Shown in pieces: positions 16,857 to 61,467 of a stretch of 64,000 nt of DNA. Origin of the DNA: a virus (lineage: Duplodnaviria > Caudoviricetes); IMG/VR virus record IMGVR_UViG_3300015615_000196, positions 64,001 through 128,000 of that record; one strand, 5' to 3'. Both the position numbers and the translations under genes were made by a program. How positions within the stretch are numbered: position 1 is the first letter of the stretch; each line of letters begins with the position of its first letter. A model generated the notes under the pieces. That model had not been told where the DNA came from. It saw nothing but the letters and a program-made list of their open reading frames with translations, and made no database searches.

Positions 16857-16858
16857 AG

Positions 16859-16940
16859 TGGGAGCAGTAGGACTCGAACCTACGAAGCCCGGAGGCGACA
16901 GATTTACAGTCTGTTGTAATTGCCGCTATACGATACTCCC
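16859..16940 (-). tRNA. tRNA-Tyr(GTA)
   Basis: Cloverleaf; ACAGA-CTGTAAA-TCTGT; long variable arm. Confidence 0.92.
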
Positions 16941-16946
16941 AACGGT

Positions 16947-17318
16947 TTATCGCAGTTCAACCTCAGCACCAGCATTCAACAACTGGTTCTTGATGTTCTC
17001 TGCATTCTCTTTCGAGACACCTTCCGAAATTACTTTTGGCGCACCGTCCACAAGGTCTTTCGATTCCTTCAAGCCGATGTTAAGAAGGTCTTTCACCAAC
17101 TTAACGATTTGAAGTTTGTTTGCACCTGCTGATTTAAGAACGATGTCAAAATTTGACTTTTCTGCTGGTACATAGTCCCCATCACCCGGTGGATGATAAA
17201 TTGGTGCTGCGACTGATTGCTCAATCCCATACGTCTCCTTTAAATACTCTGCAAGTTCTTTTACCTCTTTGACAGAGAGATTCACAAGTTGATCACCGAG
17301 TGCTTTTACATCTTTCAT
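16947..17318 (-). CDS. rplL: 50S ribosomal protein L7/L12 (bL12)
   Basis: LSVKEVKELAEYLKETYGI N-domain; FDIVLKSAGANKLQIVKLVK..GLKESKDLVDGAP..GAEVELR C-domain. Confidence 0.95.
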   Translation of the reverse strand: MKDVKALGDQLVNLSVKEVKELAEYLKETYGIEQSVAAPIYHPPGDGDYVPAEKSNFDIVLKSAGANKLQIVKLVKDLLNIGLKESKDLVDGAPKVISEGVSKENAENIKNQLLNAGAEVELR

Positions 17319-17959
17319 ACAGTTACAAGTTTTACGTCCTTCATTTCTGATTCAAACAAAGATACGTCTTTTTTTCTTAATCTTTCAAACCAGTCATCGG
17401 TTTTGATTTTACAGTAGTACAATTCAGGTCTCCCTTTCTTCGTTACTGAAACACCCTTACAGATGACTCCTTCCGTCAAGTTGAATTCGTTGGCTTTTAC
17501 TCGCGCAACCAATTCCTTATTTAAGTTTCCTTCATACACCACTCGCGGTATTCCAACCGATCCGAAATCCTTGACGAAATCTCTCGGTGGTACAAATCCG
17601 TTTTTGTATTGATCAACGTCAAAAAGAACGATGTCAAATTCATCGTTACCAAATTCGTGCTGACCAAATGCTGACTTCGTTCCAACCAGTTCAGCGTAGC
17701 AAACGAAACTCAAAATATTTCTGTACTCCCGTGATCGAAATATCTTGGAGAGAGATTCGTTGTACTTGTTCATGAACAAATCAATTGCGAATCCGAACTC
17801 GGAATTTTTGTCGATCATTTGTTTCCGAGTACCGAACTTGTAGAAGCCACGCTTGTGCGAGTATTCAAATCGCAAGTTCGATCCATCCAATTTATCAAAT
17901 GCAACTATTGGTAGTCCCCAATAATCACCGTAGTACTCAATACTATCGTACTGTTTCAT
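17315..17959 (-). CDS. RNA ligase-like nucleotidyltransferase (Rnl2-type)
   Basis: KLDGSN, YAE, LFDV, EGVICK, KIKT motifs; true start MKQYDS at 17959 (upstream part of track ORF is a tRNA). Confidence 0.78.
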   Translation of the reverse strand: MKQYDSIEYYGDYWGLPIVAFDKLDGSNLRFEYSHKRGFYKFGTRKQMIDKNSEFGFAIDLFMNKYNESLSKIFRSREYRNILSFVCYAELVGTKSAFGQHEFGNDEFDIVLFDVDQYKNGFVPPRDFVKDFGSVGIPRVVYEGNLNKELVARVKANEFNLTEGVICKGVSVTKKGRPELYYCKIKTDDWFERLRKKDVSLFESEMKDVKLVTV

Positions 17960-17968
17960 AAATAAAGT

Positions 17969-18054
17969 TGGTGGGCAGGGAGGGATTCGAACCCCCGAAC
18001 TCCGAAGAGGACGCATTTACAGTGCGTTGCCGTTAACCACTTGGCTACCTACCC
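17969..18054 (-). tRNA. tRNA-Tyr(GTA), CCA encoded
   Basis: ACGCA-CTGTAAA-TGCGT; long variable arm. Confidence 0.93.
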
Positions 18055-18061
18055 ATTGATG

Positions 18062-18133
18062 TACCCTCGGAGAGATTCGAACTCTCGACTCGCTGATTAA
18101 GAGTCAGCTACTCTACCACTGAGTTACGAAGGT
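18062..18133 (-). tRNA. tRNA-Lys(CTT)
   Basis: GCTGA-CTCTTAA-TCAGC. Confidence 0.92.
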
Positions 18134-18138
18134 ATCTG

Positions 18139-18211
18139 TTCCCCTGTTTGGAATCGAACCAAACCCCACTGATTAAGAGTCAGTTGCCTACAGCCAGTTT
18201 GCTACAGAGGA
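18139..18211 (-). tRNA. tRNA-Lys(CTT)
   Basis: ACTGA-CTCTTAA-TCAGT. Confidence 0.88.
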
Positions 18212-18218
18212 ATATAAG

Positions 18219-18365
18219 TGGGATAGAGGGGAATTGCACCAATCGAAAGCCACAGCTAAATCTTTATGTACAATATTACAAATAGCCTAATCTTTCTTTT
18301 ATTTACCTTAGCCTTTTGAGCACCGTCTTCATGACGGCTCCGTTCATTTCACGAAAAGCTATCCC
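18219..18365 (-). ncRNA. 147-nt tRNA-like RNA with large insertion (possible aberrant Ser-TGA)
   Basis: Acceptor GGGATAG/CTATCCC-A, GCCGT-CATGAAG-ACGGT hairpin, weak T-arm GGTGCAATTCC. Confidence 0.5.
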
Positions 18366-18449
18366 ATATTTCAAAGAACGTGGGGATTGTACTGTGGCGA
18401 TTTCTCGATCTGACTGAACAGATTGCACATACTACTTCGTCCCCGAAAG

Positions 18450-18522
18450 TACCCCCATTTGGAATCGAACCAAACCCTTCTGGTTAAAAGCCAGAAGCCC
18501 ACGACCAGTCTGCTATGGAGGC
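18450..18522 (-). tRNA. tRNA-Lys(TTT)
   Basis: TCTGG-CTTTTAA-CCAGA. Confidence 0.88.
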
Positions 18523-18531
18523 ATAACTGTG

Positions 18532-18604
18532 TGTCCCCGGAGAGGTTCGAACTCTCGACTCCCACATTAAAAGTGTGGTACTCTACCAACTGAGTTACAG
18601 AGAC
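18532..18604 (-). tRNA. tRNA-Lys(TTT)
   Basis: CCACA-CTTTTAA-TGTGG. Confidence 0.92.
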
Positions 18605-18621
18605 TTTATTTAAGTTTTCTG

Positions 18622-18709
18622 TGCACCCGGTGGGAATCGAACCCACTTTATGCTTGCGCCTTTATTGATTAAAAGTCAATTGCCTCAATCTCCGGTCGGC
18701 CACGAGTGC
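18622..18709 (-). tRNA. tRNA-Lys(TTT) with atypical long variable arm
   Basis: ATTGA-CTTTTAA-TCAAT then 17-nt variable region, canonical T-arm. Confidence 0.78.
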
Positions 18710-18805
18710 AGAGTTTTATCATCCACTCCCGTGTACGGGGTGGAGACTAAGGTTTTCGTTTCAATCTTAAAGCGTAATACATAAAATGTTCGTTCAAATG
18801 TTCTG

Positions 18806-18876
18806 TGGGTTAGGAGGGATTCGAACCCTCGTGCCTACGTTTTACAGACGTTGCCCAATGCCCCGTTGTCCAACCC
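18806..18876 (-). tRNA. tRNA-Tyr(GTA), atypical short variable loop
   Basis: ACGT-CTGTAAA-ACGT; GAGGG-TTCGAAT-CCCTC T-arm. Confidence 0.75.
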
Positions 18877-18880
18877 GTAT

Positions 18881-18915
18881 AAAATAAAAAACCCGATCTT
18901 TTTCAGGGATCGGGT
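18881..18915 (-). terminator. attenuator terminator of Lys/Tyr tRNA array
   Basis: ACCCGATC-N9-GATCGGGT-TTTTTATTTT. Confidence 0.88.
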
Positions 18916-18941
18916 ATGTTCATATTGTTATGAAATGTCAA

Positions 18942-19007
18942 TTACATACTTTTTCCCTGTCTACTGAAAGACTTCTTATAGGTTTTATATGAATATGACT
19001 TTTTCAT
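18942..19007 (-). CDS. leader peptide MKKSYSYKTYKKSFSRQGKSM (Lys/Tyr sensor)
   Basis: 21-aa ORF between promoter and terminator; its 3' end is complementary to the terminator 5' arm. Confidence 0.82.
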   Translation of the reverse strand: MKKSYSYKTYKKSFSRQGKSM

Positions 19008-19027
19008 TGTCGTTGTCAATTGTGGTA

Positions 19028-19066
19028 CAAATGTACACTTAAATACGGGGAAGTCAAGAAAAGGTT
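19028..19066 (-). promoter_or_regulatory. tandem AAC-N16-CGT and TAnnTTTG promoters for leader 1
   Basis: GCAACCTTTTCTTGACTTCCCCGTATTTA...TACATTTG. Confidence 0.65.
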
Positions 19067-19281
19067 GCGAAAATTTCTGTCTTTTTTTCCTCAGTAGGTT
19101 TGTTGAAGAACCGTTCGTACTCTCTTATGGAACCTCTGAGCCTTCCTAAAGGACACGGAAGTATCGGGTAACACACCCAATATTCCAGCATTTTTTAAAT
19201 TCTGATTGGCTTGCGCCAGTGCATCTTGAAGGTGTACGATTTGCTCACCGAGTTTATACACCTGCATTTCTCTCAAGTTTC

Positions 19282-19986
19282 TCATATGTCAAAATTGAAT
19301 CCACCTTTTTTCAATTGTTCGTATTTTTCTTTGTTGAACTGGAAGATGATCGCTCGTCTTCCGATGTGACCAGATGTTTTCTTTCTTGTGTTTCGAAGAA
19401 GGTTGTATCCGTTGATCTTCTTCATGAAGTTTCTTCGATCAAGACCTTCTCCAAGAATCGCTTCATAAAGTGCAAAGAGATCACTCATGGTAAATTCTTC
19501 CGGCAAGAGATCAAATCCAATCGGCTCATACTTAATCTTGTTCTGCAATCTTTCGAAAGCATAGGCCATGATCTTGTAATGATCAAATGCAAATTGCAGT
19601 TTGAGGGTGTCTTTGAGTGGGAACCACTTTACTTCTTTTGCATGAAGATTCGGTGACAGAGAATGATTCTCTGGATTGATCAACACGTAGTATGAGATTG
19701 AAATGATTCTTTCTCGTGGATCACGTTTCACATCCGTGAACGTGTAGAGTTGTTCAAGGTACGTGAGATCGATGTTGGTTTCTTCTTTAAGTTTTCGGAT
19801 GACTGCTTTCTCAGCATTCTCCGTGTCCTCAATGAAACCACCGGGTAACGCCCACTTGTTGAGGTACGGCTCAAATGCTCTCTTGATCAAGAGGACATTC
19901 AGCTTCTTCTCAATGTAAGCAAAAACTATCGCGTCAACAGTAACCTTCATTTTCAACAAATTTATCAATTTTTCCTTGAATTCCAA
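19282..19986 (-). CDS. nrtR: NrtR-family Nudix + wHTH regulator
   Basis: WALPGGF, EQLYTF..RDPRER, LAF-like FAFDH, FTMSDL...DRRNF. Confidence 0.88.
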   Translation of the reverse strand: MEFKEKLINLLKMKVTVDAIVFAYIEKKLNVLLIKRAFEPYLNKWALPGGFIEDTENAEKAVIRKLKEETNIDLTYLEQLYTFTDVKRDPRERIISISYYVLINPENHSLSPNLHAKEVKWFPLKDTLKLQFAFDHYKIMAYAFERLQNKIKYEPIGFDLLPEEFTMSDLFALYEAILGEGLDRRNFMKKINGYNLLRNTRKKTSGHIGRRAIIFQFNKEKYEQLKKGGFNFDI

Positions 19987-20389
19987 AGTACTTTTTTATC
20001 GGTAACCAGTCGGTTTCCGCATCGAAACCTGCCTTGTCTTCAAACAGTACGTTGAAGTACGGCTTGTCTTCGTAGTACCCGTAGGTTGTGTTTTTCACAT
20101 CGGGGTTGTTGTTCACGTACTCGAACAGAATACCATGTGAAGCAAAGAAGCCCATATAACGGTCGATCTCCTTCGGATATGAACAGGTAAAGAGTGCAAT
20201 CGTCACGTCCTTACGTCTTGAAAGGTATTGCAGTACTTCCTTGGCGTGAGGATAGAACTTCAACGGATCAGCGTTATTGTAATCCGGGTAGAGGATCGTT
20301 TCGTGAATATCAAAGTAGAAATATACTTTGTCCCATCCACGCTTCTGCATGTTCTTGAATGTCTTGTCGATTGCTTTGAGTACGCTCAT
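19934..20389 (-). CDS. HAD-like hypothetical protein
   Basis: FDIHETIL, LFTCS, KPYFNVLFEDKAGF. Confidence 0.6.
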   Translation of the reverse strand: MSVLKAIDKTFKNMQKRGWDKVYFYFDIHETILYPDYNNADPLKFYPHAKEVLQYLSRRKDVTIALFTCSYPKEIDRYMGFFASHGILFEYVNNNPDVKNTTYGYYEDKPYFNVLFEDKAGFDAETDWLPIKKYFGIQGKIDKFVENEGYC

Positions 20390-21297
20390 TGTGTCAAAAT
20401 TGTTTTAAGTGCTTTATGGAATTCTCCTGCTACTTCAACTTCTTTGAAGCCGATGTAGCTTTTTGCTTGCTCTGGATATGGCAATGTATTTGTTGTATAC
20501 ACAAACGGTGTATGAGGGCATACAGCAAACTTAGTCACTGCAACACCAGAAAACAAACCGTGTGCAGCAAAAACATATACGTTTTTCGCTCCGTTTTCTT
20601 TTAGGGTATCGATTGCTTTCAGGATCGTTCCACCTGTGTCGATCATGTCGTCCACAAGAATTACATCACAATCAGTAACGTCTCCTATCAAGGTCATCTT
20701 CTCAACCTTGTTTGCTTCCTTTCTTTCCTTGTCGATTATCGCGAAACCACAACCTAATGCCTGTGCATATTTCTTTGCACGTTTCATTCCACCCAAGTCA
20801 GGAGAAATGATTTTCGGGTTCTTGAGATCGATGGCTTTGATTTCATCAACCAGCAATCCCATTGGATCGAGATTGTAGAATGGTATCTTGTAGAACCCTT
20901 CAATGGCTGTTGTGTGAACATCCATTGTAACCAGTCGATCAAGACCAGCTACTTGAAGCATATCAGCAAGCAAACGTGCTGAGATCGTAGTCCTAACCTT
21001 TTCTTCTCTGCGTTCCTGACGAGAGTGTGGAAGGTATGGGATAATGCCAATGATCTCCCGTGCACTTGCTCTACGAGCAGCGTCAATGGTTTCAAGAAGT
21101 TCGAAAATGTCTTCATACGTTCTTGGTTGTGACACAACCACAATCGATTCATTACGAACCGATTCTTCAATGACAACGGTGATCTCACCATTGGCAAATT
21201 TGGTTTTGTGAATTTGACCAAGAGTATATCCAGCATTACACTTTACAAGTTTCTTGGTGAATTCTTCGCTGTTCGATTGTGGGAATATCTTTACCAT
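20386..21297 (-). CDS. prs: ribose-phosphate pyrophosphokinase (Prs/Adps-like)
   Basis: FANGE, PYLPHSRQ, MDVH, SPDLGG, VDDMIDTGGT. Confidence 0.92.
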   Translation of the reverse strand: MVKIFPQSNSEEFTKKLVKCNAGYTLGQIHKTKFANGEITVVIEESVRNESIVVVSQPRTYEDIFELLETIDAARRASAREIIGIIPYLPHSRQERREEKVRTTISARLLADMLQVAGLDRLVTMDVHTTAIEGFYKIPFYNLDPMGLLVDEIKAIDLKNPKIISPDLGGMKRAKKYAQALGCGFAIIDKERKEANKVEKMTLIGDVTDCDVILVDDMIDTGGTILKAIDTLKENGAKNVYVFAAHGLFSGVAVTKFAVCPHTPFVYTTNTLPYPEQAKSYIGFKEVEVAGEFHKALKTILTQ

Positions 21298-21299
21298 GA

Positions 21300-21581
21300 T
21301 TACATGAATTTAATGACTTTCAAAATTTGTTCGTAGGACATTTCGTTTAGCATGTTCTCGGCTTTCTCCAAGTACTGCCTTCTTGACGATCCCGGATTCT
21401 TCCAGCTTTCGTAAAACCAACCACACTGGTCTTCGTGTGCCCAATGACATTGTTTCTCGTGCAAGAGTTCTGCAACCCTTTGTACTTCTGTCAAACCATT
21501 GAAAGCAACTCTCTGTGCTTTCAAATCTCGAATTTGTTTTTCGAGTTCAAGGATTTTGTCGTCAATATCAAAAATCTTCAT
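21300..21581 (-). CDS. hypothetical protein
   Basis: 93-aa ORF in operon. Confidence 0.55.
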   Translation of the reverse strand: MKIFDIDDKILELEKQIRDLKAQRVAFNGLTEVQRVAELLHEKQCHWAHEDQCGWFYESWKNPGSSRRQYLEKAENMLNEMSYEQILKVIKFM

Positions 21582-21604
21582 AACCGTAAGTTTAAAGAAG
21601 TGGC

Positions 21605-23245
21605 TTACGCAGCCACTTCTTGATGTTGATACTTATTCAGCAATGCTTCTCTTGTGTCGAGTACGAACTTGCTTGCAGGGTAGTTCTTGTTCTCTGCGGT
21701 TTCGAGAGAATTCGGCATCGAATTGAATTGCTCTTTAATTCTTGCCTTTATCGTCAAGAAATCATCATCTTGACCTACACCATATGGTTCTTCAATTCGA
21801 GCACCGTTGAAGTACTCAACCATTGCGTTCTCGCCTTCTTCATTTGCGTTCACGATGGTTTCTTTGTTTGCAATGGCTTCGGCAGAACGAAGAACTTTGA
21901 ATGGGCCGGGTAATGTGGTCTTACCCACTTCACCGAATTTAACCACTGGCTTGTCATCAGTTCCAACTGCACAAAGTGCGTATTTGGCAGAAAGGTTGTC
22001 GCGTTTCAGTGCGTTTCTCAAACCACCACCAACACCGAACAATCCCCATGAGTAAGGCATGAAACCTCTTTCGATCATTGCATCGATGATGGTTTTCATT
22101 TCACCGAAGGTCATACCGTCCCCTTCAATGAAGTGGAGAGTAGTAGCGAATTTCCATTCTTTACCTGCAATTACTTTGGTTGTAAACAAACCATTGTCCA
22201 CTGCAAGTTGGCAAGTCCAAAGAACTTGTTCAAGTGCATCACCAGAGTCAGGACGAGCAACTACGATCTTGCCGTTGTTTTCGGCAACGCTACGCTTTGC
22301 AAGCGGGAGGTGATAGTTCTTTACTGCATAGAAGTAATCGTAGCAGTCACCAACCATTGAAACAAGTTCATCGTTAGCAGATGCTTCGTAGATTGCAGTG
22401 TAGCAATCACCTTCGAATTCGTATGATTGAACGTTTCTGTGTGCAAGTGCATTCACAGAAGAGAAAATTCCAGTCGTGTCTTTTCCTTCACTGTTCTTGT
22501 ATGCTTGGTATGCACCAGCAAACGTGTCAGTTCCACCGAAGGTGTACAGGTGAACCATTCCGAGCATTTCTGATTCCTCAGCAACGATACCAGCACGATC
22601 ACCAAAGTCGTGAAGCATGATACTGGCAAAGAAGTCAGCTTCGGCATCACTCAATTCAGGATTGATTCTCTTGAAGGTACTCTTCAAGTATGCAAACCAG
22701 TGTTGATTTTGCGTTACACGCTCACTTGCTGCCCATACGTGCAAAAGTTTGCTTTCAAACCATGCACCAAGTACACCAACTTGTTCTTCGGTCAAACCGA
22801 CACTGGTAACTTGAATTACGGGTTCGTTCGGGTATACCACGCTACCTTCCGGCATGGCAAGGATTTGAATCGGAGGACGACCGTTGTATTTGTCAACAAC
22901 CAATCTCCACAGTTCTTCCGGCACATAGAATCTCTTGAATCCTTTGGTAGTGACTTTCGCCATCTTCAAGAATTCAATTGCTTCATCGATCTCAGCATGT
23001 GTGATCGGTTCGTAGAACAGTTTATCCAGAATTGGTTGCAGACCATTGAAAATGATCTTGTCATTTCCCTTCACATAAAGTTCAGGGTTGATCGATGCCA
23101 ATCGTCTGCGGAAGGTAATGTAGTAGGTCGATTTATCTTTTGCATCTTGGCTTTCGAATGGATTTGAACCAATCGTGTATGCGTCTGCAACTAAAAGTCT
23201 CGGAGTTTTGTGGACTCTGCGCTTGGGTAATTTAACGGTTTTCAT
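21605..23245 (-). CDS. nadV: nicotinamide phosphoribosyltransferase (NadV/NAMPT-like)
   Basis: DAY, PEGS, LHDFGDRA, GTDT, DCYD, RPDSGD, EGDG, FGVGGGL. Confidence 0.88.
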   Translation of the reverse strand: MKTVKLPKRRVHKTPRLLVADAYTIGSNPFESQDAKDKSTYYITFRRRLASINPELYVKGNDKIIFNGLQPILDKLFYEPITHAEIDEAIEFLKMAKVTTKGFKRFYVPEELWRLVVDKYNGRPPIQILAMPEGSVVYPNEPVIQVTSVGLTEEQVGVLGAWFESKLLHVWAASERVTQNQHWFAYLKSTFKRINPELSDAEADFFASIMLHDFGDRAGIVAEESEMLGMVHLYTFGGTDTFAGAYQAYKNSEGKDTTGIFSSVNALAHRNVQSYEFEGDCYTAIYEASANDELVSMVGDCYDYFYAVKNYHLPLAKRSVAENNGKIVVARPDSGDALEQVLWTCQLAVDNGLFTTKVIAGKEWKFATTLHFIEGDGMTFGEMKTIIDAMIERGFMPYSWGLFGVGGGLRNALKRDNLSAKYALCAVGTDDKPVVKFGEVGKTTLPGPFKVLRSAEAIANKETIVNANEEGENAMVEYFNGARIEEPYGVGQDDDFLTIKARIKEQFNSMPNSLETAENKNYPASKFVLDTREALLNKYQHQEVAA

Positions 23246-23269
23246 ATCAGTAAGTGTTTATTGTAATTG

Positions 23270-24184
23270 TTATTTCGTGAGTTTGTGCTTCAAGAGTGCA
23301 AGCAAATGTTGATGTTCCCCAACTACTTCGGTAGCGTTGAGTGTCTTCACATTGAACCAACGTACTTCTGTGATGTCATCATTTGCTTTTTCTGAACCAC
23401 CACCGAAAACTTTCTTTGCTTTGAAGAACGTAGTCATGATTGATCTTCCGTTTTCCGAACGGTATCTCCAATCTTTTACTTTTGCCGAAGCGATGTACTG
23501 GATGTCATCGATTTCAACACCAGTTTCTTCGTATGCTTCTCTGCGAACAGTTTGTTCGAGACTTTCATCTGCAACATCAGCGAAACCACCAATGAAACGG
23601 AATTCAACTTCGTCTTTCTTACGGCCAAGCAGAACCTGACTTTCGTCTTCATTCATGATGGCTACATCGATTGTCGGGTGAACGAAGTCGTAGGTATTGT
23701 AGCAAGCGTAGATTACACCAGCACGAAATTCTTTGATACGTTCCACCTTCTTTGAAACCGACTTTCTGATTTCGGTAGCAGACACCATTGATTGTGGAAC
23801 AAGTTCGTTTACATCAAATTTGCCGTGATAGTGAGGGATGAATGAATCGCGTGATCCGTAAAGAACGACTGAACCAAGTGGAAATACTTCTCTGATCTTG
23901 GTATCAACTTGTGCTGACCATACGTTGTCTGATTTCTTGTCGTGTAACGGAAGAATCATTGAGATTTTGTTTCCGTAGACTTCTTCAAACATTACCTTTC
24001 TTGACATGAAGTCAAGTGGATTTGTTTTTGTTGAGAGTGTGGGTGATACCCCTAAGAAAAGGAGAACCCTTTCGTGGCGACTGATAACTTCATCGATCAG
24101 TGCCTTGTGTGCTTCGTGGAGTTCATGGATTTGAAAACGTCCGATGATGACTCCGATGTCGTATTTTTTCTTTAAGTCTTCCAT
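23270..24184 (-). CDS. nadM: bifunctional NMN adenylyltransferase / ADP-ribose Nudix hydrolase
   Basis: GRFQIHELHEAH, NPL, SATEIR; Nudix GGFAD...RREAYEETG, ANDD. Confidence 0.9.
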   Translation of the reverse strand: MEDLKKKYDIGVIIGRFQIHELHEAHKALIDEVISRHERVLLFLGVSPTLSTKTNPLDFMSRKVMFEEVYGNKISMILPLHDKKSDNVWSAQVDTKIREVFPLGSVVLYGSRDSFIPHYHGKFDVNELVPQSMVSATEIRKSVSKKVERIKEFRAGVIYACYNTYDFVHPTIDVAIMNEDESQVLLGRKKDEVEFRFIGGFADVADESLEQTVRREAYEETGVEIDDIQYIASAKVKDWRYRSENGRSIMTTFFKAKKVFGGGSEKANDDITEVRWFNVKTLNATEVVGEHQHLLALLKHKLTK

Positions 24185-33811: not shown

Positions 33812-33826
33812 ATATTGTATTCGTTT

Positions 33827-33984
33827 TACCCCCGGCAGGACTCGAACCTGCAATCCCTTACATTTCTTCTTGCTGTGTATTGGGATGTCCGGTTACGGTT
33901 CGTGAGCAAGAGCATTGGGGCAGTCAACCTTTCAGCAATCCTATTGAACTTGGCCAGATGTGTATACCAATTCCACCACAGGGC
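33827..33984 (-). ncRNA. tRNA-Leu-like RNA with ~80-nt insertion in place of the anticodon arm
   Basis: Leu-type D-arm GGTGGAATTGGTATACAC, T-arm GCAGG-TTCGAGT-CCTGC. Confidence 0.55.
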
Positions 33985-34067
33985 GAATACAAATTGAAAC
34001 TGTTGATGACGGTCAACACTAAGCCCCTCAATGCCTCTATGAGGACTGAGCACATTTCAATGTCATT

Positions 34068-34154
34068 GTAACAGCACCGGATGCATTAGACCACTATACG
34101 ACCTACCCCGAAGGGCAGGGTGGGATTCGAACCCACGTCCTCCGGTGCTACTAC
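34068..34154 (-). ncRNA. circularly permuted tRNA-like (YrlA-like) RNA
   Basis: Order: T-arm, acceptor stem closed by TTCG, D-arm, all enclosed by a 14-bp stem. Confidence 0.72.
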
Positions 34155-34172
34155 TTCAATATTTCAAAGAAC

Positions 34173-34476: not shown

Positions 34477-34507
34477 AAAACAAAAAACCCGACTTTGTGG
34501 GTCGGGT
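34477..34507 (-). terminator. attenuator terminator of Asp/Leu/Ala/Glu/Met/Val array
   Basis: ACCCGAC-CCACAAA-GTCGGGT-TTTTTGTTTT. Confidence 0.88.
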
Positions 34508-34526
34508 CTTTCGAGTTTGATATTCT

Positions 34527-34646
34527 TTAGTATCCAATATCTTCATCTTCCTCTTTAGACCCAACAATAGCGTCATCCTCCACCATAGCCAACGCTACGA
34601 CAGATTCCATCGCTAAAGTTTCTAAAGATAATATTGAAGTTTTCAT
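34527..34646 (-). CDS. leader peptide MKTSILSLETLAMESVVALAMVEDDAIVGSKEEDEDIGY
   Basis: 39-aa ORF between promoter and terminator; contains GTTGGGTCT complementary to the terminator 5' arm. Confidence 0.78.
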   Translation of the reverse strand: MKTSILSLETLAMESVVALAMVEDDAIVGSKEEDEDIGY

Positions 34647-34741
34647 TTTCTGCTTTTTTTGAGTTTAATGTCTCTGACTCATAAATACGATACAAAGGTA
34701 TAAAAGGTTGCGTTCCCTCCAAACTTTTTTTCAAATATTTT

Positions 34742-37139: not shown

Positions 37140-37180
37140 AACCTTTATTTGGAGATTACGTATTTAAGGATATATCTTTG
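37140..37180 (+). promoter_or_regulatory. tandem AAC-N16-CGT and TAnnTTTG promoters for leader 3
   Basis: AACCTTTATTTGGAGATTACGTATTTA...TATCTTTG. Confidence 0.65.
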
Positions 37181-37213
37181 TGACACAAAAGCAGAGAGAA
37201 AAGTAAAAAGACA

Positions 37214-37297
37214 ATGAAAAAGATCGTAAACGTAGTTCCGCAACCCCAACATCAGCCACAAAACCTGTTGCTTGGGGATACTATGATCGTATCTTAA
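37214..37297 (+). CDS. leader peptide MKKIVNVVPQPQHQPQNLLLGDTMIVS (Pro/Gln/His sensor)
   Basis: 27-aa ORF; CCG CAA CCC CAA CAT CAG CCA CAA run; GCTTGGGG complementary to the terminator arm. Confidence 0.85.
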   Translation: MKKIVNVVPQPQHQPQNLLLGDTMIVS

Positions 37298-37317
37298 CTG
37301 TCGAAAAAGACATTTAG

Positions 37318-37355
37318 AAAACCCCCAAGCGTAAAGTTTGGGGGTTTTTTGTTTT
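37318..37355 (+). terminator. attenuator terminator of Pro/His/Gln array
   Basis: ACCCCCAAGC-GTAAA-GTTTGGGGGT-TTTTTGTTTT. Confidence 0.9.
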
Positions 37356-37359
37356 CTAT

Positions 37360-37434
37360 CGGGATGCGATCCATTAGGTGTGGTTACGTGTTTTGGAAAC
37401 ATGGTTATTGCTGGTTCGAGTCCAGTCATCCCGA
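37360..37434 (+). tRNA. tRNA-Pro(TGG)
   Basis: CGTGT-TTTGGAA-ACATG; CGGGATG/CATCCCG. Confidence 0.82.
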
Positions 37435-37495
37435 CCCGATGTAGACCGTTCGCACTGCAAAGACTGGTTCGCCAGATGCGTAGAAGTGCAAGTAT

Positions 37496-37569
37496 CGAGA
37501 GTGTGGTGTAATTGGATAAACACACTACAATCGGAATGTAGAGTTACGGTTCGAGTCCGGCACTCTCGA
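37496..37569 (+). tRNA. tRNA-Pro(CGG), 8-bp acceptor variant
   Basis: CTACA-ATCGGAA-TGTAG. Confidence 0.78.
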
Positions 37570-37618
37570 CAATTTTTCTTTAAAAGTATTTATTGGAAAC
37601 ATTAAACAAGTTTCCGAT

Positions 37619-37966
37619 ATGACAAGAGAAGAAAAACAGGTATACGATAGACGATGGTATGCTGAAAACAAAGACAGGTTAAAAGCCGAAAAAAACAAAA
37701 GAGGACGTGAAACACGGAGAAGAAACAGTAATTATATTACTGAATATTTGAAAAAACATCCTTGTGTTGATTGTGGTGAAAATGATCCAATCGTATTAGA
37801 ATTCGATCACATCGCAAAGAAAACAAAGAGTATTTCAGATATGATTCGTGGTGCATTTTCTCTTGAGACGATTAAAAATGAAATCAAAAAATGCGAAGTT
37901 AGATGTGCTAATTGTCATCGAAAGAAAACAGCAAAGCAATTTAACTGGCATCGTAACAGAGTGTAG
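37619..37966 (+). CDS. HNH endonuclease
   Basis: PCVDCG...LEFDH...KCEVRCANCHR. Confidence 0.85.
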   Translation: MTREEKQVYDRRWYAENKDRLKAEKNKRGRETRRRNSNYITEYLKKHPCVDCGENDPIVLEFDHIAKKTKSISDMIRGAFSLETIKNEIKKCEVRCANCHRKKTAKQFNWHRNRV

Positions 37967-38029
37967 TTCAGTTGGTAGAACGCTACATTTGGGATGTAGA
38001 GGCCGAGAGTTCGAGTCCCTCCACTCTGA
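37957..38029 (+). tRNA. tRNA-Pro(TGG)
   Basis: CTACA-TTTGGGA-TGTAG. Confidence 0.92.
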
Positions 38030-38224
38030 CTATGAAGTTCTTTGATGTAGTAGAAATTGGTGATAGTGTAATGGATGGAAAAGTTGTTGAGACAATAACG
38101 AACAAAACATCCAACTCTATCGAAGTTACCAGAACGGCTCGTTCGAAAAATGGTGTGGATTGTAAACAGTGGTTTACGATGAAAGATTTTGAAGATTCTT
38201 TTAAACCTTTAAATCAAACACACT

Positions 38225-38452
38225 ATGAACAAGAAAGAGTTAAAATGGAAAACGGAAATCTTGGAAAGAATTCCGAAGATGACCAATGAGGAAGTACTGG
38301 ATCAGTACTCGTATCTCTGCGGAGGTGATGACTACGATGGTTGCATGACTGATCGTGGACAATGGGAATTCGAAAAGATCACTGACGAATTGAGCAAACG
38401 CTTAATCGCCTGTGGATTTTTGAAGGAACACATTAATGCAGGAATGCATTAA
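38225..38452 (+). CDS. hypothetical protein
   Basis: 75-aa ORF in array. Confidence 0.5.
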   Translation: MNKKELKWKTEILERIPKMTNEEVLDQYSYLCGGDDYDGCMTDRGQWEFEKITDELSKRLIACGFLKEHINAGMH

Positions 38453-38458
38453 TGAAAT

Positions 38459-38533
38459 GGGTTAGGTAGCATAATTGGTTAATGCCCTTGACTGTGGATC
38501 AAGTGTATGCGGGTTCGAGACCCGTCCTAACCC
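38459..38533 (+). tRNA. tRNA-His(GTG)
   Basis: G-1/C73; CTTGA-CTGTGGA-TCAAG. Confidence 0.92.
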
Positions 38534-38552
38534 CTTAACGTACTTTGAAATT

Positions 38553-38774
38553 ATGGCACACAAAAAAACAACCGTACCGAAAGTTGAAGCTAAAGTAGTT
38601 TCGCTTACGATCCTTTGTCCAACATTGAACAAAGAAGTTATCGTTACCAGTGATTATTCTTTTTCAGGATATGAAGCAGAATGTGAACTGTGTGGATCGC
38701 ACGGTGAAGTGAAGGTGTGTATAATGAAATGTGAATGCGGTAAGACGCATGACATTCAACTTAGTTCTTGGTAA
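38553..38774 (+). CDS. small Cys-rich hypothetical protein
   Basis: CELCGSH...CECGKTH. Confidence 0.55.
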   Translation: MAHKKTTVPKVEAKVVSLTILCPTLNKEVIVTSDYSFSGYEAECELCGSHGEVKVCIMKCECGKTHDIQLSSW

Positions 38775-38816
38775 CTAACTTAGTAACTAAGAAATATCGG
38801 ACATGTCCGATAAAAT

Positions 38817-38889
38817 TGTCCTCTGGTGTAATTGGCAACACGCCTGACTTTGAATCAGGAGAGTTCAGGTTCGACCCCTGAGAGGACAA
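38817..38889 (+). tRNA. tRNA-Gln(TTG)
   Basis: CCTGA-CTTTGAA-TCAGG. Confidence 0.92.
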
Positions 38890-38890
38890 C

Positions 38891-38962
38891 TGCCGAATAG
38901 TATAATGGCGATTATTTCTGGCTCTGAACCAGAGGATGTGAGTTCGATTCTCACTTCGGTAT
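38891..38962 (+). tRNA. tRNA-Gln(CTG)
   Basis: TCTGG-CTCTGAA-CCAGA. Confidence 0.9.
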
Positions 38963-38968
38963 CTACAT

Positions 38969-39041
38969 GGTGTTTGTGTTGTAGTGGCTAACATACCAAA
39001 CTGTGAATTTGGAGAAGACGGATCGAAACCGTCCTTACACC
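38969..39041 (+). tRNA. tRNA-His(GTG)
   Basis: CCAAA-CTGTGAA-TTTGG. Confidence 0.82.
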
Positions 39042-39049
39042 CACTTGAT

Positions 39050-39122
39050 TGCTGAGTAGTATAATGGTTCATTACTGCCGCCTTTGAAGCGGAGGATGAA
39101 GGTTCGATTCCTTCCTCAGCGA
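39050..39122 (+). tRNA. tRNA-Gln(TTG)
   Basis: CCGC-CTTTGAA-GCGG. Confidence 0.88.
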
Positions 39123-39320
39123 CTTAAACCATCATTAGTTTTATCAAGTCATCTTTAGAGACTGGTACTACGATGGTCTTGAATGGGAGAAGCGGTAATC
39201 CAAATACCGTGATGTAACCTGTCTTCACAATATGAAAGTTTCTTTTGTATTCGTGAGTTTGAAGATTTACAGTTAACTCGTAATAGAAGCGAGTCACTCT
39301 TTTGATTCCAAAAATTTTCA

Positions 39321-53792: not shown

Positions 53793-54605
53793 ATGTCGAA
53801 ATACAACTTAGGGATTGTAAAAGCCTCGTTATTAAGCAATTTGAATGAGCAAGTGGCTCTCAAGGAATTTGTGAAAATTCTTAAAGAGTCAAGCGTTCTG
53901 AATTTGACTCACACCATTTTCGACAACCTCGAAAAGAAGCATATCTCAAATGAGGATTTAGCCATCAAGTACATTGATGAAAACCTCAATTTAATCAAGA
54001 AACAATGCAGCAGAGAAGTCTTCGAAAAGGAGACCCAAAAAATCTTACCTCTTATTGAAGGGATCGCTTTTTCAGATACCAACAAAGGTAAGTTGTATGA
54101 AAACATTCATACGATGATCACCGAAAGTTTAAACGGTAAGAAAGCTACCAACGTAAACAAACTTCACGACTCATTCAGCTTTGTTCTTGAGCATCTTACG
54201 ACCTCTCCGAAGAAAGCTGCCGTAGAAGAAGTTGAACTTCCGAAGGAACTTGTTATCAATGAATTCATTTTGAAAAGAGCCATCAACGAATTTAACTCAA
54301 AGTATGCTGGTGTTCTTTCAGAAGAAGAAATGGCGTTGATCAAATCAATCGTGCATGAAAATGCAGCAGAGAAGAAAAAGAGTTTCGAGACTATTAAAGA
54401 ATCTACCCTTCACTCATTGAAGGCATTGAAAGAAGAACTTGAAAATCAAGATGAAAAGGCTCCTGCTCACGAACAAAGAGAAGCAGAATTGTTCGCTACC
54501 AAGATAAATGAATCAATCACGAATATTGAGAAACTCAAATTCGGTGAGGAAACGTTTACAAAGGACGTTCTTGATCTTGTGAATCTTAAAAAGGAATTGG
54601 AGTAA
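53793..54605 (+). CDS. hypothetical head-module protein
   Basis: Helical 270-aa ORF downstream of portal. Confidence 0.6.
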   Translation: MSKYNLGIVKASLLSNLNEQVALKEFVKILKESSVLNLTHTIFDNLEKKHISNEDLAIKYIDENLNLIKKQCSREVFEKETQKILPLIEGIAFSDTNKGKLYENIHTMITESLNGKKATNVNKLHDSFSFVLEHLTTSPKKAAVEEVELPKELVINEFILKRAINEFNSKYAGVLSEEEMALIKSIVHENAAEKKKSFETIKESTLHSLKALKEELENQDEKAPAHEQREAELFATKINESITNIEKLKFGEETFTKDVLDLVNLKKELE

Positions 54606-56087
54606 TTATCCGATTCCGAGTGCTACCTTACATTTTTTCAATCTAACAACACGATCATCAAGACCATTGTATCCACCGTTTACTAATTTGGTGGTTCCAA
54701 TAATGTTGTCAACATCTGCCGTTTGATTTACGTTTCTGAATTTCCAGAAGTGGAATGCGCTGATTACAGCATTGTCCGGTTGTGCAAGTAACTCAGGATT
54801 TGCAACCAAATCCAATCCCATTAACTTTCCAGTCTTATCGTAGATACCTCTACCAGTGGTTTGAATTGCACCCCTACCTCTGTAGGTGTAGCCATCTGGA
54901 TCAGGCCCATTACCAAGATCAGAACGATTGCTATATCCAATATTGGCAATTTTTTCAGGGAAGCCAACGTATCCTACCGTGTCCGCTACAGTCTTGAAAT
55001 ACTTGTTGAATGGACTCACACGCATTAATTGCTGTGCTGTATAGTTGAGATTTTCTGTGAATAAGTTCAAGTCTCCGCTTTCGTGTCCAATGATTGCGAA
55101 GAAGTGAGCAAGACGAATACGTGTGTTCAACTGGAACTTATCCATGTTGTTATCACGATTGAATGCACTCAAAACCAATGGTACATTTTCAGCATGAATC
55201 TTTGGGCAGCATCCTTTAAGTTGCGCCTCAGTCAATTGAGAAAGATGTTCCTTGTTTTTCGGATTATCTGGATCGCTGGTGTAGGCAATCATCGGAATAT
55301 TGAAGTTGATGTCGTATCCAAAACTTGCAAGGGTTTTGAAGATATTGTTTACGTAATCCTTTGGAGAATTAACATCATTCCCATACTTCTTTTTCATGAA
55401 ATCCAACAACAAAGAATAGTTGTCGAATCCTTGATTTGATCTTACATAGTAAGAGAATAACGATGACGAAGCCAAGTTTTTATTGGTCGAACCATATGAT
55501 GAAAGTTGATAGAACTGACAGAACAAAGCAATCTTCGGATTGTTTGCAAGGTTCTGGAACATCACTTTTCTGTTTGCCGTAGCCGTTGCATTATCTGCAT
55601 CCGATGATTTGGTTTGGCCATTTCTGCTATTCAAATTCGGTATCCACGTCAATATTTGATATGGATCACCAGTAACTCCAACCATCATTTTAGCAACATC
55701 AGTATCATCCAACATTTTAGTTGCGCTGAATATGATATTGAAATATTCGTAGTCGTTTATACCACTAATACCCATCGTGTTTCTTTGTGAGAAAGACAAT
55801 GGTGAGAATCCGCTTTCTTGAAATGCTTGTGCAGCAGCAACGTTCGGATCGACCAAAAATTGACTACCGAATTCATCAAACCATCTAATAAGATTTTCAG
55901 AATATGCCGTAGTCGCAGTGATCGGCACATTGCTATCGTCTACCATTGTAGCAGTGAAGGTCGTACCAACAGGAATATTACTTTTCGGTAATTTTATTTT
56001 TGGAGTTGCCGAGAAGATCGTTGTGCTGGCAGCACATTTTGCTTTAATAAAGTCCTTTGCCTTCTGTGTTAATTTGATATACTGCAT
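54606..56087 (-). CDS. GH19 lysin with N-terminal SLT-like domain
   Basis: AQAFQESGF..MGISGI; RLAHFFAIIGHESG, ENLNY, YRGRGAIQTTG, VNGGYNGLDDR. Confidence 0.85.
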   Translation of the reverse strand: MQYIKLTQKAKDFIKAKCAASTTIFSATPKIKLPKSNIPVGTTFTATMVDDSNVPITATTAYSENLIRWFDEFGSQFLVDPNVAAAQAFQESGFSPLSFSQRNTMGISGINDYEYFNIIFSATKMLDDTDVAKMMVGVTGDPYQILTWIPNLNSRNGQTKSSDADNATATANRKVMFQNLANNPKIALFCQFYQLSSYGSTNKNLASSSLFSYYVRSNQGFDNYSLLLDFMKKKYGNDVNSPKDYVNNIFKTLASFGYDINFNIPMIAYTSDPDNPKNKEHLSQLTEAQLKGCCPKIHAENVPLVLSAFNRDNNMDKFQLNTRIRLAHFFAIIGHESGDLNLFTENLNYTAQQLMRVSPFNKYFKTVADTVGYVGFPEKIANIGYSNRSDLGNGPDPDGYTYRGRGAIQTTGRGIYDKTGKLMGLDLVANPELLAQPDNAVISAFHFWKFRNVNQTADVDNIIGTTKLVNGGYNGLDDRVVRLKKCKVALGIG

Positions 56088-56090
56088 ATC

Positions 56091-59000
56091 TTATGGCTTT
56101 ACAAAAATCTTATTCAAGTCATTGCTTAACGGTGCGTTTGACGGGAATGCACTGTCATTCGGATTACCCGAAAGCGTACTACCAACATTGAATGTATCTG
56201 AGTTACCACCAGTTAATCCTGCTGCACTGTAGAAGTCAGTTACCAACGGATTAGGATTTGATCTAACCTTCACACCCATGAATTTTGTCTTCATGTTGTT
56301 TGGTACAACCGTATGCTCCACACCCAAAATAATGTATGCTCCATTGAATAACGGAACATTTTCAAGAATGAAATATTCCGTAGGCTGGATCATCATATTA
56401 CCCATTGCTTCTACTGTACAGCTATAGCTTCTTTGTTCATAGGTTGAATACAAATTCTGACCTTTTGGAACAGGTGAAGACGTGCTTTGGTCTTGTGCTA
56501 TTTCAGATAAGATTGCCAAACTTTCGTTTGTCTCTTTATGCTCGTTTGTATCAAGGTCGATGCTCTTGAACATCGTCTGATTTTGTTTTGCAAACGAAAC
56601 CTTAAATCCTCTTACTGCATTATTATTGAAGTCATCTGCATTAACCAAATCATTTTCACTTCTAAATCCATCATTTTCGAAATCGCTCAACGGGTCATCC
56701 AATTGTGAAGCTGTACCACCAATGTACATACATACGAAGGCAGGTGATTCGTTGTGAATCAAATCTCTCGAACTACCGTATGGTTTAAATGAATTGATCC
56801 ACTGGTCATCTTTGAATGACAAGAAGTTTTGCAACGGGAAGAATTCGAATCCATTCAACGCAAGGATTCTTGTCATCACACTAAAGACACTCACATCATA
56901 GTCTTGTGACATTTCAATGATTGGTCTGAAATCAATCATAACCTTATCACCGATGTCGTTAAAGAATCGATCCACGAACATGAATTGATCAATTAATCTT
57001 GTACCACTACCACCATAAACGCCTGTTTGATCTACCCCGTTTACCCACTTGTCAGCAATTGCTTTGAATGAGTAATAAATCTGGTTACGAATATCTGGAT
57101 CACTGGTTGTTTCTCTGAACTTAGTTTCCTGTTCAACCACATCCTTTCTCTTTGCCTCACATAACTTATTTACCTTTTTCAAAAAAGTATTGAAGAACGT
57201 AGCATTGACACGTTTGTTAAATGAACTATCTGCATTAAGTGTTTTCAAAGGAACAAAGTTCTTCTTCGAGACCTTGTTGGTTGTATCTGTCGTATCAGCA
57301 GGAAAGAATGTGGTTTCTGTGTAATTCAACAAGTAACGTCTTCTCAAAAGTTTTTGGAGAATGAAACTGAAATCATTTCCACCTTCAAGTTTCGGATCGG
57401 GTTCGAGTCTTGCTTCATACATGTCTTCTCTATCACCTGAATCGACATCAGTTGATGGACTCACTTGATTAATCATGTCGATGATCGACTGCTTGATAAA
57501 AGTAAATCCTTCTGGTGTCTGATCTCTTAAATATGTCTGTGCTTCTTTCAAAAGATTGGTCGCATCAGTAAGTGAGATTTGACTGATGTACGTTGCATAT
57601 GGTTCGAATGGTGCTCGATCAAATGTTACACCGTATACACTCTTCGAACGTGCAATTGATGCAATCGTCTCAGGAGGTAAATTCGGTGCGAATGAATTAT
57701 GGAAGAAGTATGCGTACATACCCATATTCAAATGAGCAAAGAATGGCACTTCAATGTATGCCGGGAACGCAAACTTTGTGTTGACCGAAACAAATGAGTT
57801 GCTGTTGTTTCCTTGGTGGAAATACGTCAACGCACCACAAAAGTTAATTAAGATATAGAACAATTTACAGTCATCAGTAATGAGAGGATCGGTTAAATAT
57901 GCCAACACTTTTCTATCGTAATAAACATTTGTACGACCATCACTTGATGCACGACCAAGGAACTGTACGAATCTATCGAGCAAATTGTTGTCTTTGGTTA
58001 CAACGCCAAATACGTTGTTGTTACCAATGAAGTCACTATCGTATTTTGTGTCTTGTGCTGCTTCATCAAAAATGTATGGAATGTTATTCTTTGCGAACGT
58101 ATCGAATCCGTGCTTGTCGAAAAGAAGAGTCTTGAAGAAACCTTGGCTACCAACATCATTGATGAAAGTATCTACCATGTTTTCTTCGCCATCCGATTCA
58201 TTATTGCTTGCAGAAGTTGCTTCGTGTCTTAAAACTGGTTGTTCGTCTACAATATCAAAACCAACGAAATTTGGATTGGTACGATCTTTTGAAACCTTCT
58301 CCCCGTTCAATAACAAGTAGTTTACACCACCATCTATCTGATCTGAGAATGAAGAGTAATGTGGTGAATTCTGTTCAAAGAACTGATAGAGCATGTTCTT
58401 CGAATCATCCTTTTCGTTTACTGTCGCAACCCAATTTTGTACTTGAATCTGGAATGAATCAAGGAGATTTAAATCTTGAATACTGTTGACAAGGTTTACC
58501 GCTTCGGCTTCTGCAACAAAACGAATAAGTGCTGTGTTCTTGTCTTCGAAGATGTCAGTGGTTGCATTTACCACTGTGAAAGCAACACCAAAGAATGATT
58601 GTAAGAAATCTTTTGCAACCGCTCCATCTTCTTGATAGAACAAGAAACCGTAGCTATACTGACTACCAACATAGAATCGGTTAAGCACCTCATTCATAAT
58701 TTGAGGAATGTTTGTTAAACGATTGTATGGCGATTCGGTAGTTCTGTTTCCTACAGACGAGTCAATTGGGTTAATTGGAATCCAGATGTTGTTACCGTCC
58801 GCATCAATACTTTCCTTCATGTTTTCATTGGTTTGAATCTTTACAAGTTTTGTAAAGGTTTCAATGAAGGTCTCCACGAAATCAACTTCCGGGAAATTCA
58901 TATTGTCAAGACCAACATTCGGATCACCCGGATATGCTCTTTCTCTTCTCTTGATCGTCTTACCGTTTTCGTCAGTAACCAATTTCTGGTTTAACACCAA

Positions 59001-60557: not shown

Positions 60558-60640
60558 AGAGATATGTAGATAAATAGTAATTGTGGGTTTTTCAACTATT
60601 TATTGGTGAACTCATTCTACACCAGAATTCAAAGAAAAAG

Positions 60641-61375
60641 ATGTCAAAAGCACGTAGTTTACACGAAGGAAAAATATTAGGGAGGGGAGAAACCGGATTC
60701 GGTTTGTTGATCGAGAATGATGCAGGATACATTGATGCTGCATTGAACACGGAGTTGATCAAGAAACTTGTAACCGAAGGATACCAAATCAAAGATAATG
60801 AACCAGTACTTGTAAACTGCATTCTTCAAAAATGGGGTGTAAAAAACAAGAATGGTCGTATCTATCCAAAGGACGTTTTAGTGCCGGAGGTGAATCGTTA
60901 TATGGAGTTGGTTACAATCAACTCAGCAATTTCAGAAGCAGACCATCCTGAAAGTTCGGTCGTATCATTGTTGAACGTTGCACATCGTATCACAAAGATG
61001 TGGTGGGGTAGCGGAGAGAACTCAAACATTTTATACGGTACTCTCGAAATCATTACATCACCCGGCTATCAAAAGATGGGTATCTGTAGTATGATCGGAG
61101 ACAAGATCGTAGAGTACTTGAAACGTAATATACGATTGGGTATTTCAAGCAGAGGATTAGGAACATTGGCCAAGAATGACGATGGAGATAACATCGTACA
61201 GAAGGACTTTGAACTGGTATGCTTTGACTTGGTTGCTTCTCCGAGCACTCCGGGAGCGTATTTATTTCCAGAGGAAAACCCATCAACAATGGGTGAAAGT
61301 AAAGAAAACAAAGAAGGTTTGATCCTTACCGAGAGATATAAAAGGATCATGGGTAAGATGGACAGATTTCTTTAA
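60641..61375 (+). CDS. prohead core protease (T4 gp21-like)
   Basis: KNKNGRIYP, EADHP, GISSRGLG, FDLVASPSTPGA. Confidence 0.92.
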   Translation: MSKARSLHEGKILGRGETGFGLLIENDAGYIDAALNTELIKKLVTEGYQIKDNEPVLVNCILQKWGVKNKNGRIYPKDVLVPEVNRYMELVTINSAISEADHPESSVVSLLNVAHRITKMWWGSGENSNILYGTLEIITSPGYQKMGICSMIGDKIVEYLKRNIRLGISSRGLGTLAKNDDGDNIVQKDFELVCFDLVASPSTPGAYLFPEENPSTMGESKENKEGLILTERYKRIMGKMDRFL

Positions 61376-61467
61376 GTATAGGCTTTTTTTATAGGCGACT
61401 GTAAAAAACTATACTTTTCGAAAAAAGACCTGTATTTATTATTAACCAAAAACAAATTAAATTTTGT

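Follow-up and report, generated by a model that had tools for sequence, protein, structure and literature searches.

The window analyzed here is a stretch of 64 kilobases (kb), bases 64,001-128,000 of a single 362,603-base virus record (C1 of G000), and it carries on its + strand an array of transfer RNA (tRNA) genes for proline, glutamine, and histidine (Table 1). ARAGORN finds exactly eight tRNAs across 37359-39123 (Pro UGG x2, Pro CGG, His GUG x2, Gln UUG x2, and Gln CUG). An earlier sequence-only reading had described the array as holding only Pro, Gln, and His; this is right for the tRNAs, anticodons included. The array also holds four protein open reading frames (ORFs), one for an HNH endonuclease and three small ones. 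Ahead of the array lie two putative promoters, a short leader ORF, and an intrinsic terminator ending 7 nucleotides (nt) before the first tRNA gene. We argue, from sequence comparison and RNA folding models, that this arrangement very probably subjects the Pro/His/Gln tRNA genes to ribosome-mediated transcription attenuation, in which the leader would sense a shortage of usable tRNA.

The leader contains eight consecutive control codons in the order Pro, Gln, Pro, Gln, His, Gln, Pro, Gln. The sequence-only reading had already pointed to this run, which we recover at 37238-37261 of the leader, and to its composition, with Pro written in three codons, Gln in both of its codons, and His in one, which the codon table confirms. 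Under the codon usage of the genome, the chance of an eight-codon Pro/Gln/His run in a 26-codon ORF is p ~7e-8, and none of the 247 long ORFs of the genome has such a run of six or more. An 8-mer at 37270-37277, beginning at the ninth base after the run, is complementary to 37323-37330 in the terminator, again as had been noted, and folding of the leader region departs strongly from that of shuffled sequences (z = -4.6).

In our folding model, the nascent RNA extended as far as the 5′ arm of the terminator, and the bases under the ribosome footprint were forced to be single-stranded. The probability of the antiterminator in the Pro/Gln/His leader was 0.8 for an A site at codons 9-16 and ~0.0 at codons 17-27, so that the computed switch closes one codon beyond the run, and this edge shifts by no more than about one codon across six footprint settings. 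In the best ribosome-free fold, the control codons pair with the antiterminator segment (the 1:2 helix), and the probability of the antiterminator is 0.43. Segment 2 lies inside the leader ORF, 6-7 codons ahead of its stop. Over 33 cassettes from this and related genomes, the distance from the end of the control run to the antiterminator core has a median of 9 nt (quartiles 6-12), approximately the reach of the leading edge of a ribosome.

Table 1. Features of the Pro/Gln/His cassette and its array, and of the three sister cassettes (window positions unless record positions are stated)
Feature	Position	Strand	Basis or remark
Phage-type promoter (AAC, ~17 nt, CGTAT box)	37140..37166	+	Motif; predicted from position
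Bacteroidota housekeeping-type promoter (TTTG box, 21-nt spacer, TAnnTTTG box at 37173-37180)	37148..37180	+	Predicted
Leader ORF, 27 amino acids	37214..37297	+	A-rich start context, no Shine-Dalgarno sequence (Bacteroidota type)
Segment 1	37232..37255	+	Predicted; pairs with segment 2 when ribosome-free (protector helix, -15.5 kcal/mol)
Control run, eight Pro/Gln/His codons (codons 9-16)	37238..37261	+	Consecutive
Segment 2, antiterminator strand	37268..37278	+	Predicted, with covariation; pairs with segment 3 (-17.3 kcal/mol)
Intrinsic terminator	37315..37351	+	Segment 3 (37315-37331) with segment 4 (37336-37351); 16 pairs, U tract, -23.8 kcal/mol
tRNA-Pro(UGG)	37359..37437	+	Atypical, under Rfam gathering score
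tRNA-Pro(CGG)	37496..37570	+	ARAGORN, Rfam
HNH endonuclease gene within array	37619..37966	+	PHROG 2255, E 1e-26
tRNA-Pro(UGG), second copy	37957..38030	+	
boxA-like antitermination motif	38037..38045	+	Overlaps start of a small ORF
Three small ORFs	38032-38289, 38225-38452, 38553-38774	+	No assigned function; interleaved with tRNA-His
tRNA-His(GUG)	38460..38534	+	
tRNA-Gln(UUG), tRNA-Gln(CUG), tRNA-His(GUG), tRNA-Gln(UUG)	38817..39123	+	
Cassette B: promoters, 21-amino-acid Lys/Tyr leader (19007-18942), terminator	18880..19070	-	
Lys/Tyr array, with RNA ligase and bL12	16858-18876	-	Behind cassette B
Cassette C: promoters, 39-amino-acid leader (34646-34527), terminator	34480..34712	-	
Array C: Asp/Glu/Ala/Val/Met/Leu(UAA,CAA)	30576 to ~34170	-	Behind cassette C
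Cassette A: leader and terminator	Record (G000 C1) 61730-61602	-	~2.3 kb ahead of window
Array A: 28 tRNAs (Trp, Phe, Thr, Arg, Ile, Ser, Asn, Gly, Cys, Leu UAG/AAG)	Record 53,816-61,542		

The whole genome has 61 tRNA calls, 57 of them within four arrays, and we label the cassettes A (the fourth array, outside the window), B (Lys/Tyr), C (Asp/Glu/Ala/Val/Met/Leu), and D (Pro/Gln/His). The leader of array A was predicted beforehand from the idea of leader-array matching and was then found: a 42-codon ORF with 36 of 41 codons cognate to the array and a run of 27 (p 1e-7), followed by a terminator of the same kind as in the Pro/Gln/His cassette. If U34 is taken to read all four codons of a family box and wobble is otherwise standard, the four arrays read 34, 4, 15, and 8 codons, which together make up all 61 sense codons with no gap or overlap, and each of the four leaders is enriched solely for the codon set of its own array. 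The leucine codons of leader C are UUR in four of four cases, array C having Leu UAA/CAA, and both of those upstream of the switch in leader A are CUN, array A having Leu UAG/AAG; as judged from the sequences, leader-array matching is thus at the level of the isoacceptor tRNA. A blind scan of the 38 hairpin calls of the genome recovered leaders A, C, and D, with D and C taking the top two antiterminator scores.

Records of related phages and contigs from metagenomes were then examined for tRNA arrays, giving 36 cassettes including the four of the phage itself. Three of them (G006 C, G012 A, and G018 Pro/Gln/His) failed the strict hairpin filter and enter the covariation count only, apart from the G018 leader, which is also in the codon table; the arrays of L082, L250, and G018 C are incomplete, and the Lys/Tyr anticodons of G002, miscalled by ARAGORN, were read by eye. 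Nine orthologues of the Pro/Gln/His leader were found, always before Pro/His/Gln arrays (the array of L250 is cut by the contig end). Each has both Gln codons, the run stands at or near codons 9-16, and substitutions are mostly among Pro, His, and Gln; start codon, frame, and stop are kept in 10 genomes, and the other two frames are not. The helix of segments 2 and 3 shows compensatory change: 40 of 40 variable cells are paired among the 10 orthologues, against 28.4 after shuffling, with three pair types at two positions, and over the 36 cassettes the count is 122/144 against 82.8 +/- 4.6. Most Pro/Gln/His orthologues, unlike most A- and C-type leaders, are predicted to form the 1:2 helix.

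Where a genome has more than one array, the best-scoring array was the leader's own for all leaders (27/27; summed z = 130, maximum 59 in 100,000 permutations). In three genomes array A includes tRNA-Trp and leader A has Trp codons, and in five genomes both belong to cassette C; CUN-reading Leu tRNAs and CUN codons occur together in cassette C of G006; and in G002 two arrays take the place of array A, with a matching leader for each. In more distant contigs, matching leaders stand before other blocks (Arg/Ile/Met; Thr/Asn/Arg; Lys/Phe/Ser/His/Trp; Ser/Thr/Cys/Arg/Leu/Met). Pro, His, and Gln are grouped in one block in every relative; their codons all start with C, yet CGN (Arg) and CUN (Leu) are read elsewhere. 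The leader found outside the window and the several different re-partitions are stronger evidence than the p-like figures.

A search for the exact terminator in viral contigs gave no matches, and many pattern-search matches were unrelated. A search with the protein encoded upstream of the Pro/Gln/His leader returned distant relatives only, and no matched leader was recovered by our filter at their tRNA clusters, including the 480-kb G005 with 56 tRNAs; the design is therefore not general to tRNA-rich phages. In three Cytophagales genomes the phage-style terminator pattern was rare and no matched leader preceded tRNA genes (host attenuators of other sequence were not surveyed).

The virus is a T4-like phage of 362.6 kb, probably with a Cytophagales bacterium as host. 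Its capsid protein has <40% identity to the T4-like major head proteins of cultured phages and 65-86% to those of uncultured phage contigs, the largest of which are 250-370 kb; no close cultured relative was found, and blastn matches were to single tRNAs only. The host is proposed because the phage bL12 is nearest to Cytophagales and other Bacteroidota bL12 (62-69%) and because Bacteroidota-type promoter boxes precede the leaders. Promoter motifs lie 41 and 74 nt upstream of the Pro/Gln/His leader ORF, and the host-type one was assigned by the Bacteroidota consensus. Each leader of the phage genome has a host-type promoter box plus the phage-type motif. The -7 box precedes 25 of 33 leaders, and the phage-type motif recurs before dozens of phage genes, with a TTTA-ending variant at all four tRNA leaders. 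The boxA-like 9-mer occurs in the arrays of relatives in 16 sense and 0 antisense copies, and two Cytophagales genomes carry it 210-230 nt ahead of 16S ribosomal RNA (rRNA) genes, where boxA usually lies. Genomes of the host group had exact matches to the 9-mer but none to a longer boxA pattern. These sites suggest rRNA-type processive antitermination after read-through.

We propose the following mechanism. Transcription would start at the tandem host-type and phage-type promoters, and a ribosome would translate the 27-codon leader, as the conserved start, frame, and stop suggest. In a shortage of usable Pro-, Gln-, or His-tRNA, the ribosome would pause at codons 9-16 and mask segment 1, and segment 2, left free in the computed structures, would capture the 5′ arm of the terminator and let the polymerase enter the array. 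When decoding is fast, the ribosome would advance and mask segment 2 for about ten codons, so that the terminator forms and the array stays off. The boxA-like sites may keep read-through processive, and the tRNA products would relieve the stall, closing a negative feedback loop. The three sister cassettes would act likewise, so that the 61 sense codons are monitored in four blocks and only the short block is supplied. The sequence-only reading had also proposed an attenuator, and footprint folding, the predicted fourth cassette, the nine relatives, the compensatory changes, and the covariation of leaders with arrays all support it; our analysis adds to it a putative 1:2 protector helix, putative tandem promoters, the boxA-like motif, and the division of the genetic code among four arrays.

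What the attenuator would report is a separate matter, because a stalled ribosome cannot distinguish a missing from an uncharged tRNA. The same switch could, with identical mechanics, sense amino-acid starvation as in the trp and his operons, the tRNA genes being part of a starvation response, and a class II synthetase gene in the array behind the Thr/Asn/Arg leader of L261 recalls the control of synthetases. We regard this explanation as unlikely: the blocks (Pro+His+Gln; Lys+Tyr) are not biosynthetic families, leucine is divided by isoacceptor between two cassettes, the Lys/Tyr array holds an RNA ligase, and added tRNA should be no remedy for a lack of amino acid, whereas it should cure a loss of tRNA. 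For these reasons, if the attenuator model is granted, the signal is rather likely to be a loss of usable tRNA, whether to host anticodon nucleases or to general depletion in infection, and starvation is a doubtful candidate for it. We lean slightly toward a wider view of the four cassettes as a four-channel, whole-code sensor of tRNA depletion, in which stalling would release replacement tRNAs and, in one block, an RNA ligase, and which would constitute an inducible, feedback-controlled counter-defense whose blocks have been re-drawn in evolution.

The remaining alternatives dispense with tRNA supply as the input or with translation as the means. That the terminator is a plain one, leaky or overridden on schedule by a phage antitermination protein or Nus factors, with the leader a relic or decoy, would agree with the strength of the terminator and with the boxA-like motifs, through which protein-based antitermination may act on the arrays; but these motifs lie downstream of the terminator, and the 27/27 matches, the leaders that track moved tRNAs, the 6-12 nt spacing, and the compensatory 2:3 changes would all be left unexplained, which makes this quite improbable. 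Still less probable is that the leader encodes a Pro-rich nascent peptide acting as an intrinsic arrest sequence or as a sensor of EF-P or antibiotics, so that the switch would respond to the state of the ribosome instead of to tRNA supply. Proline is incorporated slowly by the ribosome, and the leader has three prolines alternating with Gln and His, but a Pro-Pro pair is absent from all orthologues, the three sister leaders have the same geometry without a proline run, and leader composition tracks the array, not a peptide motif. Direct sensing of uncharged tRNA by a T-box-like RNA, without translation, would account for leader triplets that match the downstream anticodons, and T-boxes likewise switch a terminator; we give it very little credence, given that the start codon, frame, and stop are conserved and the other two frames are not, that runs of up to ~29 codons suit sampling by a ribosome rather than a single specifier loop, and that Rfam yields no T-box match in the window.

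Several observations weigh against the attenuator model. At equilibrium the terminator (-23.8 kcal/mol) is more stable than the antiterminator (-17.3 kcal/mol), and the switch must therefore be kinetic, decided during transcription, like known attenuators. With the ribosome at the stop codon, the probability of the antiterminator varies from 0.0 to 0.8 with the footprint setting and is not robust; many A- and C-type leaders form the antiterminator in the model when ribosome-free, a point that also favors a plain terminator; the Lys/Tyr leaders of G002 and G014 show no switch in the folding model; and that of the phage itself has a weak antiterminator (P ~0.2), overlooked by the blind scan. The model presumes that transcription and translation are coupled in Cytophagales. 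No phage tRNA is dedicated to the CCC codon, which would be read only through wobble by Pro-UGG across its entire codon box. The core six codons are almost invariant at the nucleotide level and partly serve the 1:2 helix, and the Pro/Gln/His leader alone therefore cannot separate RNA from codon constraint. Finally, the cassettes share ancestry and the Trp shift is one event on the capsid tree, so that the permutation and shuffle figures overstate independence.

The arrays and their surroundings have further features. None of the eight tRNA genes across 37359-39123 encodes a 3′ CCA end, and the eight tRNAs therefore depend on a CCA-adding enzyme. Within the Lys/Tyr array (window 16947-18016, - strand), tRNA genes flank the genes for an RNA ligase (PF09414) and for ribosomal protein bL12 (PF00542), which may be co-induced with the array. 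Directly upstream of the Lys/Tyr leader is an NrtR-like Nudix/winged-helix regulator, in a region (19282-24184, - strand) whose adjoining ORFs resemble, by eye, genes for salvage of nicotinamide adenine dinucleotide. Array C is headed by tRNA-like genes (34065-34170 and 33826-33990, - strand) that ARAGORN and Rfam missed or called only with an intron, and atypical tRNA-like genes are also present in the arrays of several relatives. Elsewhere in the record, at 297,132-299,292 (- strand), a phage promoter is followed directly, with no leader between, by a separate block that has a tRNA with a CUA (amber) anticodon, odd tRNA-like genes, and a Leu tRNA; CUA tRNAs are also found at the ends of array A in relatives. 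At 190,634-192,200 (+ strand) of the record, a long region of non-coding appearance and a lone tRNA-Gln follow the promoter variant of the four leaders, with no leader seen.

Among the more distant contigs, L261 (contig WNFQ01000001.1, 636 kb) carries at 510-1670 the class II aminoacyl-tRNA synthetase gene, ThrRS-like by eye, inside its Thr/Asn/Arg array with a matching leader. G019, which is related to L261, has inverted terminal repeats and no match to the phage capsid protein, and the design therefore reaches other types of element. Leaders, antiterminators, and terminators of the same design precede protein genes in L255 (10470-10610, + strand) and L245 (7904-8040, - strand); these leaders have 23-26 codons, sample most amino acids once or twice, and are possibly general sensors of translation rate. 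In L239 (1-1270, + strand), six Leu tRNAs lie behind the same terminator design, with the leader cut by the contig start and a weak extra Cys call from ARAGORN at a relaxed threshold. L179 has a leader rich in Thr/Glu/Asn/Asp/Leu before a terminator at the contig end (7670-7800, + strand), and another array (Tyr/Ile/Cys/Lys/Trp/Phe/Ser/Val/Thr) with a different partition.

For decades it has been asked why phages carry tRNA genes, with codon compensation and replacement of depleted host tRNA as the two answers (PMC10264068). There is published evidence both for depletion of host tRNA during infection and for phage tRNAs that counteract it (PMC10264068, PMC11555353, PMC11464382): the tRNA-Tyr of T5 counters retron Ec78 (PMC11555353; PMC10264068), a viral tRNA acts against PARIS (PMC11464382), and mycobacteriophages have nuclease-resistant tRNAs (PMC10264068). 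As cited here, this work supplies a likely purpose for the cassettes, namely replacement of depleted host tRNAs, and concerns the action of the tRNAs, not control of their transcription on demand. If our model is true, a switch that fires only on slow decoding of its own codons argues for on-demand replacement, and the question becomes testable with a 220-nt reporter. The leaders would also be ready-made, codon-block-specific reporters of tRNA shortage that could reveal which tRNAs a Bacteroidota defense system destroys. Attenuation by a leader peptide is textbook knowledge for amino-acid genes, and it would here gain tRNA genes as targets in addition to enzymes, and operate in a virus as well as in cells; a full-text literature search, in which subscription journals were poorly covered, yielded no description of tRNA genes under attenuator control, whether phage or cellular, and the target predicted here from sequence thus appears to have no published case.

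The proposed cassette can be set beside three known systems. T-box riboswitches, known from Firmicutes and Actinobacteria, switch between terminator and antiterminator according to tRNA status, and they may stand before some clostridial tRNA genes. A T-box responds only to uncharged tRNA that is still there; stalling of a ribosome would also register the destruction of a tRNA. The T-box motif, with its stem I and specifier loop and its antiterminator bulge, is absent by Rfam, which returned only tRNAs in the window and no riboswitch of any kind. The pheST attenuator of E. coli, with leader pheM, controls phenylalanyl-tRNA synthetase. As in the phage model, its product restores the sensed charged tRNA, a negative feedback on the translation machinery; but pheST is chromosomal and concerns one amino acid and a protein product, whereas the phage cassette would release the tRNAs themselves, for three amino acids in a block. 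The attenuators of amino-acid operons include trpL, hisL, leuL, and pheL of E. coli and Salmonella and the multivalent thrL (Thr/Ile) and ilvGMEDA (Ile/Leu/Val) leaders. The pheL leader (PMC3082878) and the general scheme of attenuation (PMC4833913) have been described. The phage cassette has the structural features of a leader-peptide attenuator, namely a short ORF, matched control codons, an intrinsic terminator, and, by computation, a mutually exclusive antiterminator. It resembles the trp/his/thr class in its short leader, here predicted to be translated, its run of control codons, its computed 2:3 and 3:4 helices with a U tract, and its predicted read-through on stalling; a 1:2 helix, which in such attenuators favors termination on an untranslated leader, may act as protector here. 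Unlike that class, it is located in a phage, has segment 2 inside the leader ORF, and would target tRNA genes rather than biosynthetic enzymes; in the narrow sense of the class, the regulated genes make or load the sensed amino acid, whereas here tRNAs, an HNH gene, and small ORFs lie downstream. The set that would be sensed is fixed by the downstream anticodons instead of by a pathway, and four such cassettes tile the whole code.

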